From an uncultured Gemmatimonadales bacterium (GTDB lineage: Bacteria; Gemmatimonadota; Gemmatimonadetes; Gemmatimonadales; GWC2-71-9), in the NCBI GenBank assembly GCA_963739455.1, contig CAVUAK010000003.1, positions 192,001 through 256,000 on the forward strand: 64,000 bases of DNA, given 5' to 3'. This document shows, one piece after another, positions 24,101-27,100 of the stretch (positions are counted from its first letter, which is position 1; every line of letters starts with the position of its first letter). Position numbers: made by a program.

Positions 24101-27100
24101 ACGAGCTGCCGATCGTGGTCACTGGGCTTGCCGAGGAAGAGCTGGGGCAGAAGGGCACCGAGGGCAGCATGAAGCGGGCGCACAAGACGCTCGATCCCGA
24201 GTTGCCGTCGGTGGTGGTAACGGGCAGCATCGCCGAGATGATCGGCGGGGGCGTGACGCCGGAGGGCACGAACATCCAGCGCTTCCTGCCGCGCACGATC
24301 GATGAAGACCAGTGGCAGACGGCAAACCGCGCAATGTCGTGGCTCTGGGCGGAATACGGCCTGAAGCGCGGCGTGCGTCCCGACCCGAAGCCGCGCGAGC
24401 CGGGTGCGAAGCCGCGGGTCAACATCATCGGCCCGTGCTACGGCACATTCAACATGCCGTCCGACCTGGCGGAGATCCGCCGGCTGGTGGAGGGCATTGG
24501 TGCCGAGATCAACATGGTCTTCCCGCTCGGGTCGCACCTCGCCAACGTGCCGCGCCTGGTCGATGCCGACGTCAACGTCGTGATGTATCGCGAGTTCGGC
24601 CGGCAGCTCTGCGAGGCGCTGGAGAAGCCGTACCTGCAGGCGCCCATCGGGCTCCACTCGACCACGACGTTCCTGCGGACCCTCGGCGAGCTGCTGGGCC
24701 TCGATGCGGAACCGTTCATCGAGCGGGAGAAGCACACCACCATCAAGCCGATCTGGGACCTGTGGCGCAGCGTCACCCAGGACTTCTTCGCAACGGCGAG
24801 CTTCGGCATCGTCGCGAGCGAGACCTACGTCCGCGGCATCCGGCACTTCCTCGAGGACGAAATGGGGCTGCCGTGCACGCTGGCGGTGCCGCGCATTCCC
24901 GGGGCCAAGACTGACAACGCCGCGGTTCGGCAGTCGCTGAAGGAGCGGACACCGCTGGTGCTCTTCGGGAGCTACAACGAGCGGATGTACCTCGCCGAGC
25001 TGGGCGGGCGCGGATCGTACATCCCGGCGTCGTTCCCCGGGGCCATCATCCGCCGGCACACTGGCACGCCGTTCATGGGCTACGCCGGCGCCACCTACCT
25101 GGTGCAGGAAGTCTGCAACGCGCTCTTCGACGCGCTGTTCAACATCCTCCCCCTGGCCACCGACATGGATCGCGTCGAACCGACGCCCGCGCGCCTCACC
25201 GCATCGCTGCCGTGGGATGTGCCGGCGCAGGAGCGGCTCGAGTCGCTGGTGGAGGCGGAGCCGATGCTGGTGCGCATCTCGGCGGCGAAGCGGCTGCGCG
25301 AACGGGCCGAGCGGGTGGCGCGGGGCCGCGGCGACGTGGAAGTGACCCTGGAGCACCTCGACGGCGACGGGTTGGCCGACCCGCGCCTCGCGCATCGCTA
25401 GGGGGAGAGGCGCCCGGCGGATTCGGTGAGGAGCCGTGCGATGGCGGCGGGTTGTTCCTCATGCAGGAGGTGGCCGCCGGGCAGGGTGTCGAGGGTGCAA
25501 CCGGGTGTGCGTCGCGCAAGTGATCGAAGGTCGTCGAGCGCAATCCAGGGATCGCGGGTCCCGGCGACGAGGTGGAGCGGCACGATGAGTCGCGGCATGT
25601 CGGCCACGAGTCCGGTGAGTGACCAGTTGGCCATCATGCCGAGGACATTGCGGACCCGCTCGTCGGAGCCAAGCATCTGCTCGTAGAGGTGCCGGTTGCC
25701 GGGTGTCACCGAGGACTGGGTCGCGCGAAGCAGTGACGCGATGACGCCCTCGCGACGGGCCAGGGCCGCGGCGGGAGCCGCGACGAAGCGGGCAGTGACG
25801 AGGCGGTGCATGAACGGCGCGATGAGCTCGCGATAGAGCGCCGGCGGCGGGACCAGCGCGGGGTTGAGCCCCACGAGCCGCGATCCGGCAGGGTCACCGT
25901 CGAGCGCCATGCGAATGATGATCGCGGCGCCGGCGGAGTGACCCGCCGAGAGCACCGGGGTGAGGCCAAGGGCAGTGAGCAGCGCGCCGCATGCGCGCGC
26001 CATGCCGGGCAGGGTCAGGGTAGCGCGGTCGGGTGCCGAGGTGAATCCGTGGCCCGGCAGGTCGGGAGCCACCACCGTGAAGTGCCGCGCGAGCAGGGGG
26101 AAGAGGTCGCCCCAGGAGAAGCTCGCCGCACCGGTGCCATGCAGGAGCAGGATTGCGGGACCGGTGCCCGCCACCTGCACATGCCACCGCAGCCCGGCGG
26201 CATCGACGAAGCGGCTCGACGAGGAATTGGGCCAGTGCGGGGCGAGCGATTCCCAGCCTGGTGGAGTGGTTGAAGGGCTGTTCATGGGTTTACGCGGTCG
26301 TATGCCCGAGTGCGGGTGACCGCCCCAGCCGCGTGGGACGACGCGGCATGTATTACAACTCCCGGAGGAGTGTATGGCAGACAACGGCTTGAGCGACGAA
26401 GAAGCACGGGGTTTTCACCGGTATTTCGTGTTGGGATTTGTCTCGTTCACTGGCGTAGCCATCGTCGCGCATTTCCTGGCGTGGCAGTGGCGTCCGTGGC
26501 TCTGATCACAACCCTTTTCCCAGAGGTTGACTGATGTACAAGATCTGGCGCGGATCCGATCCAGTGACAGTACTGGCGGGATTGTTCTTCTCACTTGGCG
26601 TACTCTCGATCGTGCTGCACCTGTTCGCGTTCAGCGCGGTGGGCTACCCGAAGAGTGCCAAGATGAAGTACAACCCGCCGGCGGCGACCCAGTAAGGCGC
26701 CCTGACGCAGGTGCGTAAGCCAGGGTGCCGGCTATCACAGGTGCCCAGCTTGCGACCCTGCGCCGCTCTCTCCTCACCAAGGACCAGCGTATGTATCGCA
26801 TCTGGCTTGCGTTCGACCCACGACGGGTGATGGTCGCACTGACGGTGTTCCTCACAGTGCTGGCCGTCACGATCCACTTCATCCTGCTGAGTTCCAGCCG
26901 GTATGCATGGATCGAGAATGGTACGCTATCGGCAGAGAAGGCGCCGGTAGGGTCCGGGCACGCCGCCGCAGTGGCCGAGATGGCCCCGCTGCCGGCCAAC
27001 CGGTAGTCGCACGAATCGAGGTCAGGCGGCAGCGGTCCGGACCCGTTGGTCCGGCCGCAGCCCCGACTTCACCCTGATGTCCTGAACGGTCCGACACGCG

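Follow-up and report, generated by a model that had tools for sequence, protein, structure and literature searches.

The window analysed here (the whole 64,000-nt stretch, from an uncultured Gemmatimonadales bacterium) carries a photosynthesis gene cluster whose puf operon runs in the order pufB-A2-A1-L-M-C. Between pufB and the neighbouring alpha gene lies a 53-aa ORF, absent from the annotation, which on sequence grounds is a real PufA2 (LHh-alpha), a variant of a known system. The features that bear on this are the following.

11101–60009: whole photosynthesis cluster, about 49 kb, with hem, crtB, bchID, bchCXYZ, puf, puh, acsF, bchMLHBNF, ppsR, bchG/P and hem genes and a bacteriophytochrome
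26374–26505, plus strand: pufB, 43 aa, the sole beta polypeptide gene found in the assembly
26534–26695, plus strand: pufA2, putative outer-ring alpha polypeptide (LHh-alpha), 53 aa, assigned by homology, profile score, tree and operon position
26791–27006, plus strand: pufA1, inner-ring LH1 alpha polypeptide, 71 aa (match to 9h19_Aa, E 2.5e-29)
27128–27961, plus strand: pufL, reaction-centre L subunit
27974–29395, plus strand: pufM, with a C-terminal OmpA-family domain (residues 367–463)
29392–30651, plus strand: pufC, reaction-centre cytochrome c subunit
31857–32399, minus strand: puhA2 (Hc), cytoplasmic part of the H subunit
32396–32599, minus strand: puhA1 (Ht), transmembrane part of the H subunit

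The initial annotation had proposed an unannotated PufA2 at this site, and phmmer, profile, tree and operon position agree with it. In a phmmer search of the PDB the product matched the LHh-alpha chains 9h19_AA (E 2.9e-11) and 7o0u_AA (E 2.4e-7), reproducing the scores reported before, while the best non-LHh alpha reached E 0.0019; the neighbouring pufA likewise proved to be the LH1 alpha that it had been said to be. Because the alignment to the PDB chains is gap-free over residues 1–46, residue numbering is direct, and the protein has Lys3, Gly7, Ser8, Ala15, Phe18, Phe19, His29, Phe31 and Tyr38-Pro39, including the His29, Phe31 and Ala15 of the original claim (codons GCG for Ala15, CAC for His29, TTC for Phe31 and TAC for Tyr38). 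A GAGG motif sits 8 nt ahead of the ATG. The PufA2 profile, which was built with the window sequence included, scored the ORF at E 1.3e-25 versus 5e-7 for the adjoining LH1 alpha. The Pfam LHC score of 21.1 bits falls under the cut-off of 23 bits, which explains why the gene is absent from the annotation. From the PufA2 alignment AlphaFold2 predicted a transmembrane helix (residues 10–36) and a short helix (40–46) at a mean pLDDT of 77.7; a Foldseek comparison of this model with the PDB returned no match, which is uninformative for a lone helix. The pufA2 of the congener G006 differs by seven synonymous and one non-synonymous codons and keeps Ala15 and Phe31, a pattern from which we conclude that the window gene is coding and under purifying selection (7:1 synonymous) and that its residues are not sequencing or assembly errors.

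Regarding the partner genes, window PufB keeps His34, Arg41, Pro42 and Trp43 (G. phototrophica numbering) and has Gly in place of Arg14 and Phe in place of Tyr26, and PufA1 keeps His29, Arg37, Trp40 and Asn43. When the assembly (84% complete) was scanned with HMMs, a single beta gene and two alpha genes came up, each of them in this operon, and no second beta gene. The split puhA described earlier is confirmed, the top PDB matches of Ht and Hc being RC-dLH chains. RC-S belongs to both solved structures and RC-U to that of G. phototrophica only; the single ORF searched as a candidate, 30735–31292, gave no match to either in the PDB. The window's acsF lies directly upstream of a probable lhaA, the arrangement of cluster subtype II as in Gemmatimonas (PMC9426454); in our set, operons found with the subtype I order are single-alpha (G008, G032), and those of subtype II are of both kinds, double- and single-alpha. 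This assembly has its crtI-family gene broken in two and frame breaks in several cluster ORFs, which may be assembly errors; no such break affects puf or puh, and in G006, which carries the same cluster, crtI is whole. Contigs about 96% identical to the window span the pufA2 ORF in two RNA-library runs from different studies (X15, X16), a weak hint at transcription, and a further run (X17) has contigs over parts of pufB and pufL only.

By analogy with the two solved homologues, PufA2 would share its partner PufB with the inner ring, holding a BChl a pair via alpha-His29 and beta-His34, and would build an outer ring that encircles RC-LH1 with some 24 subunits, LH1 itself having 16 in an RC-dLH; the operon probably yields a double ring. 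The double-ring photosystem put forward by the initial annotation thus stands as likely with respect to pufA2 and the combination of one beta with two alphas, and loses the split puhA as a supporting argument. Operons with a single alpha gene between pufB and pufL occur in four genomes of the window's family, f1 (G002, G005, G008, G032), in eight of family f2 and in three of f7, which belongs to another order. In 8 of 8 such genomes, each at least 93% complete, the best hit of the PufA2 profile was at an LH1-type alpha with E 3e-7 or weaker, compared with 1e-25 for a true PufA2. Since puhA is split in 10 of 11 single-alpha clusters as well (the eleventh stretch held no puhA), a split puhA is no marker of a double ring, and pufA2 is the one gene that carries the prediction.

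Two alternatives bear on whether such a ring would be built at all. The product could be a second LH1 alpha in a mixed single ring or an LH2 (pucA) alpha; mixed-alpha LH1 rings are among the PDB matches (7vrj, 8z81), and the profiles of PufA2 and LH1 alpha are homologous to each other. We nevertheless regard this as barely credible, given that the LHh chains score eight orders of magnitude better than any LH1 alpha, that LH2 alphas reach E 0.58 or worse, that the protein has Tyr38-Pro39-Lys40 and no LH1-type Trp at His+11, that all 77 distinct PufA2 of the survey described below (named loci: best 80 of 103) lie on one side of a 100/100 branch separating them from LH1 alphas in a tree of 44 columns, and that no second beta gene was found. 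It is also very unlikely that pufA2 or the cluster is silent or decaying and that no outer ring is made in this organism: the loss of the cluster from the same site in congeners G001 and G008, the presence of pufL in just 7 of 400 other genomes of the family and the broken crtI-family and other reading frames would fit such decay, but the intact puf and puh frames, the 7:1 synonymous pattern, the same cluster in G006 and, weakly, the RNA-library contigs over the ORF speak against it. PufA2 of an RC-dLH outer ring, with an outer band like that of G. phototrophica and B800 absent or weak, is, by analogy, the overall explanation that we consider probable.

Both solved LHh-alpha chains have Trp31 and Ser15 (PMC12817894). 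In G. groenlandica, where Trp31 donates an H-bond to the acetyl group of the adjacent alpha-BChl, outer-ring absorption lies near 860 nm; in G. phototrophica, Trp31 adopts a different rotamer without an H-bond and the outer ring absorbs at 816 nm (PMC12817894). The earlier statement that this H-bond sets the band in both complexes therefore needs correction, as G. phototrophica has Trp31, no H-bond and B816. An exciton model failed to reproduce the 816 to 860 nm shift by couplings alone, and charge-transfer effects together with a small ring displacement were invoked (PMC12817894); going by this modelling, band position is no simple read-out of residue 31. 

The G. groenlandica complex (9H19/9H22; PMC12817894) is the top PDB match of the window PufA2 and shares with it His29, Gly7, Phe19, Ser34, Pro39-Lys40 and Tyr46, as well as the operon logic, the shared beta and the split H subunit. 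Relative to it, the window alpha differs by Trp31Phe, Ser15Ala, Trp38Tyr, Tyr33Phe, Arg3Lys and Gly18Phe and the beta at positions 14 and 26 as given above, PufM bears the OmpA domain and the host belongs to another family; with Phe31, the B860 mechanism of an H-bond to the alpha(-1) BChl acetyl is unavailable. The window resembles the G. phototrophica complex (7O0U–7O0X; PMC8849296) in having no H-bond at position 31 (excluded by sequence here, by rotamer there), the same pufB/pufA2/pufA1 arrangement and the Ht/Hc split, and differs from it in the missing Ser15, in Phe18/Phe19 instead of Gly/Ser beside the B800 site and in the changed carotenoid-carboxyl contacts. With Ala15 it stands outside the B800-B816 subtype, though its outer band is predicted to be B816-like. 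The differences at alpha-Tyr38, alpha-Lys3, beta-Gly14 and beta-Phe26 had not been listed in the initial annotation. For a third organism, Pseudogemmatithrix spongiicola, which is cultured and, unlike the window's host, belongs to the Gemmatimonadaceae, pufA2 and a split puhA are already in print, described there from sequence (PMC12817894, PMC11271474); Ala15 and Phe31 may already show in its alignment in Fig. 8 of PMC12817894. No Pseudogemmatithrix locus was among the best 80 of 103 named loci, and our literature search found no spectrum for it.

To place these residues in the family, a PufL search was run over 401 genomes of the order, of which 44 were positive (f1 5/186, f2 38/187, f3 0/27, plus G000); the 7 of 400 given above for the window's family f1 come from a second PufL search. 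The puf regions of pufL genomes and 80 named loci (the best 80 of 103 in a search with a PufA1 alignment) yielded 115 PufA2 copies, 77 of them distinct. Within this set of 77, whose named loci are the best 80 of 103, 48 have Phe and 29 have Trp at position 31; at position 15 there is Ser in 23, Gly in 20, Ala in 12, Met in 9, His in 5, Thr in 3, Leu in 2, Phe in 2 and Gln in 1; and His29, which also served as a classification anchor, is present in all 77, the window included. The type of both solved structures, Ser15/Trp31/Trp38, accounts for 14 of the same 77 (best 80 of 103 named loci) and the window's Ala15/Phe31/Tyr38 for 7, among them the f2 genomes G244, G348 and G188, so that this type is present in Gemmatimonadaceae too. 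A second, partly overlapping set of 114 protein clusters, 100 of them in register after 14 were dropped as truncated or unanchored, has Phe31 in 49, Trp31 in 48 and another residue in 3, with Ser15 in 31. PufA2-bearing f2 genomes are split evenly (Phe31 in 13 of 28, Trp31 in 14, both states in one). The combination of Phe31, Ala15 and Tyr38 is hence a common state of the family and not peculiar to this genome, contrary to the impression of the initial annotation that Phe31 and Ala15 are unusual, and the solved pair is an unrepresentative, minority type. Co-evolution of Tyr38 with Phe31 was considered and dropped for too few independent pairs (one on starred branches), and treating Phe31/Tyr38 sequences as one class is unsupported (four changes on the poorly resolved 44-column tree). 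Operons with two beta and two PufA2 genes were seen elsewhere, not at the window. Our literature search, which covered few subscription papers, found no paper on Phe31 PufA2, on such two-beta/two-A2 operons, on single-alpha Gemmatimonadota antennas or on PufM-OmpA fusions.

As for the spectrum, it is certain from chemistry that Phe31, without a donor group, cannot H-bond the C3-acetyl of the neighbouring alpha-BChl, as the initial annotation had held. In Rhodobacter mutants the loss of acetyl H-bonds blue-shifts the LH1 and LH2 bands (PMC11440610). Since G. phototrophica already lacks the Trp31 H-bond, Phe31 would fix by sequence a state characterised in that species, and, given a double ring, we have good confidence in a B816-like outer band, roughly at 810–830 nm. 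The inner ring would absorb near 868 nm, in line with the residues kept by PufA1, and the separate bands would allow downhill funnelling with little transfer between complexes. For B800, Ala15 cannot provide an H-bond (again certain from chemistry), and we lean slightly towards this BChl being absent or weakly occupied; of the two predictions, that for the outer band is reasonable and that for B800 weak. The previous wording, 'probably without B800', is kept only in part: Ala15 does remove the H-bond, yet Ser15 is insufficient in G. groenlandica, where it is present and B800 absent (PMC12817894), and position 15 in most of the window's nearest relatives is occupied by His, Ser, Thr or Gln. The carotenoid site has changed as well. 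In the solved complexes the carboxyl of gemmatoxanthin contacts alpha-Arg3 and beta-Arg14, and other contacts join alpha-Trp38 to beta(+1)-Trp43 and beta-Tyr26 to the BChl ester (PMC8849296, PMC12817894); counting these, five pigment or subunit contacts besides 15 and 31 differ in the window (alpha 3, 18 and 38; beta 14 and 26). Because both carboxyl-binding arginines are replaced (alpha-Lys3, beta-Gly14), the sequence gives a hint of a different carotenoid, which may be without gemmatoxanthin's carboxyl group. Among 76 alpha2/beta pairs, beta-Arg14 is missing from 24, of which 15 have alpha-Lys3, and present in 52, of which 1 does, relatives in this count not being independent.

The outer band might still be red-shifted to 840–860 nm, with Tyr38 or another residue as donor or with ring geometry setting the colour. 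Tyrosines do serve as acetyl H-bond donors in LH2 (PMC11440610), 25 of 26 Tyr38 PufA2 have Phe31 and just 1 of 29 Trp31 PufA2 has Tyr38 (named loci: best 80 of 103), among solved alphas the window's is closest to the red-shifted one of G. groenlandica, sharing Phe19 and Ser34 with it, and the published model needs more than couplings for the shift (PMC12817894). We consider this outcome unlikely, because residue 38 in G. phototrophica touches beta(+1)-Trp43 and not the alpha-BChl acetyl (PMC8849296), Trp38 is kept in 23 of 48 Phe31 sequences (named loci: best 80 of 103), and the link between 31 and 38, with its one independent pair on starred branches, may reflect ancestry. Retention of B800 by hydrophobic packing or a water-mediated contact, which is compatible with the B816-like reading, is a serious contender that in our judgement falls somewhat short of an even chance. 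The Ser15 bond in G. phototrophica is weak (3.4 A) and hydrophobic contacts contribute (PMC12817894), nine different residues stand at position 15 in the 77 PufA2 (named loci: best 80 of 103), and the His 5, Ala 3, Ser 2 and Thr 1 in the 11 clusters of the window's own subfamily suggest a pocket in use among close kin. Set against this, no H-bond other than that of Ser15 reaches B800 in G. phototrophica, where occupancy is already partial (PMC8849296), loss of that bond by the rotamer change is the primary reason given for the absence of B800 in G. groenlandica (PMC12817894), and the bulky Phe18 of the window stands, one turn from position 15, where both solved chains have Gly. We found no pigment or spectral data for any Phe31 complex in our literature search, and a B816-like band with B800 absent or weak remains our preferred reading.

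The history of the cluster puts these residues into context. Two f2 genomes carry PufA2 identical to the two PDB chains, which identifies f2 as Gemmatimonadaceae and the order as Gemmatimonadales; f1 probably corresponds to the second large family of the order, GWC2-71-9 (PMC10581226). Starred GWC2-71-9 genomes already appear in Table S1 of PMC9426454, where we infer the star to mark a photosynthesis cluster. The initial annotation had spoken of a third lineage; a third genus, Pseudogemmatithrix, is already published (PMC12817894) and 'second family' describes the case better. A tree built from PufL, PufM and PufC (41 rows; LG+G4 without a mixture model; named rows placed in families by tree position) unites the 32 clusters that bear PufA2 in a single clade (100/99). 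Within it the window, G006, G207, G413 and two named loci belong together (100/100), and the remaining 26 PufA2 clusters are their sister group (89/94, unstarred). What is new is a probable double-ring host in another family of the order, whose cluster sits, in the best tree, on the earliest branch of the PufA2 clade, albeit an unstarred one. Trees holding all f1 clusters together (p-AU 1.2e-5) or all f2 clusters together (p-AU 1.1e-4) are rejected, which requires at least one cluster transfer, in one direction or the other. By RpoB, G008 is the closest to the window's genome among 24 other genomes (97.3%), and it carries a single-alpha cluster whose proteins are about 42–84% identical to the window's; with the whole cluster differing to this degree, a swap of the puf operon only between G000 and G008 was rejected. 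The sequences that flank the 49-kb cluster in the window are 1–3 kb apart in both G008 and G001 and enclose nothing of it but ppsR; this remnant PpsR is 75% (G008) and 84% (G001) identical to the window's, versus 56% for the copy in G008's own cluster. From these sequences the site reads best as a deletion of a resident double-ring cluster, and the ppsR remnants make it less likely that an empty site took up the cluster recently. Position 31 changed between Phe and Trp at least five times on the PufLMC tree. More speculatively, and doubtful as a whole, the window may represent the original double-ring form, with Phe31, no B800 donor and no carotenoid carboxyl anchor, giving a third spectrum of about 816 and 868 nm without an 800 nm shoulder; Trp31 and B860 would then have been gained or lost several times, position 15 (Ala, Ser, Thr, Gln, His) would act as a B800 switch, and the solved Ser15/Trp31/Trp38 complexes (14 of 77) would be exceptions.

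Taken for a single gene, the news is modest, and its value lies in the family picture. The split puhA extends across the sampled phylum, pufA2 is the mark of a single clade of clusters present in two families, and of two sister species one may have the single-alpha and the other the double-alpha cluster type. The explanation of colour tuning now in print is based on two species and on which rotamer a single tryptophan adopts, and the Trp31 rule cannot apply to about half of PufA2-bearing bacteria. With Phe at position 31 in half or more of natural PufA2 (named loci: best 80 of 103) and Ser15 lacking in most natural PufA2, nature offers a direct test of that explanation: if it is true, a complex with Phe31 should be confined to the blue state.

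Within one genus, we found two deeply different photosynthesis clusters: a double-alpha type (pufB-A2-A1, encoding both the outer-ring PufA2 and the inner LH1 alpha PufA1) in the genome studied here (G000) and in G006, versus a single-alpha type, with one alpha gene between pufB and pufL, in G002, G005 and G008 (compared on loci L048, L169-L171 (G008); L005, L006; and L047). Despite the different cluster types, RpoB of G008 is 97.3% identical to that of G000. Single-alpha puf operons occur in three genera of the Gemmatimonadaceae and in another order (L043-L046, L049, L051, L052, L138, L135-L137), and puhA is split in these clusters wherever it was seen. 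From this operon organization, we predict single-ring RC-LH1 phototrophs in the phylum.

Comparison with window positions 11100-60080 revealed two deletion scars among the congeners:
L202:4792-6368, deletion scar in G008
L203:8210-10913, deletion scar in G001
In both, the sequences that flank the 49-kb photosynthesis cluster are brought together with ppsR alone remaining between them, truncated in G008 and full length in G001. G001 has retained this photosynthesis repressor gene though its genome is without pufL.

Three further features concern the window and its assembly:
Window 57751-60009, terminal bacteriophytochrome-like gene of the photosynthesis cluster (NCBIfam NF041576, below cut-off)
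G000:C1:1093591-1094935, crtI-family gene in two overlapping pieces (L210, L211), intact in G006
Window 24222-24292, minus strand, ARAGORN tRNA-Arg call within the bchZ coding sequence
The bacteriophytochrome-like gene, common to the window and G006 and missing from the G008 and G001 scars, is a possible light regulator in a group said to have no light regulation. The split crtI-family gene is probably an indel error, as with the frame breaks in hemL, hemY and bchH of the window, and the tRNA-Arg is probably a false call.

OmpA-family (peptidoglycan-binding) domains were found fused to two photosystem proteins:
Window 27974-29395, pufM with a C-terminal OmpA domain (Pfam E 2.7e-22)
L174:1042-1647 (G316), minus strand, LH1-type alpha carrying an OmpA domain (Pfam LHC E 1.1e-13, OmpA E 2.8e-13)
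Of 94 complete PufM frames examined across the loci (some genomes counted twice), 16 end in the domain, those of the window's entire subclade among them. Anchoring of the photosystem to the cell wall is a possible role; our literature search turned up no paper on this fusion. The G316 protein is a second LH1-type alpha in a single-alpha genome, distant from the photosynthesis cluster.

The closest relatives of the window PufA2 (L076, L077, L099, L116) carry His15, which could act as a true Mg ligand to B800, of a kind that the solved complex lacks. Other operons hold two beta and two PufA2-like genes each, in the order pufB, pufA2a, pufB', pufA2b, pufA1, pufL:
L050:1822-2859 (G320)
L098:3868-4881
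L128 and L129:6081-7216
No report of such operons was located in the literature search. L050 and L128 cluster together in the PufL+M+C tree (support 100/100). PufA2a of these operons has His18 adjoining the B800 site, and that of L050 also has His15. These operons may encode a third antenna ring, or else alternative outer rings in which B800 is His-ligated.
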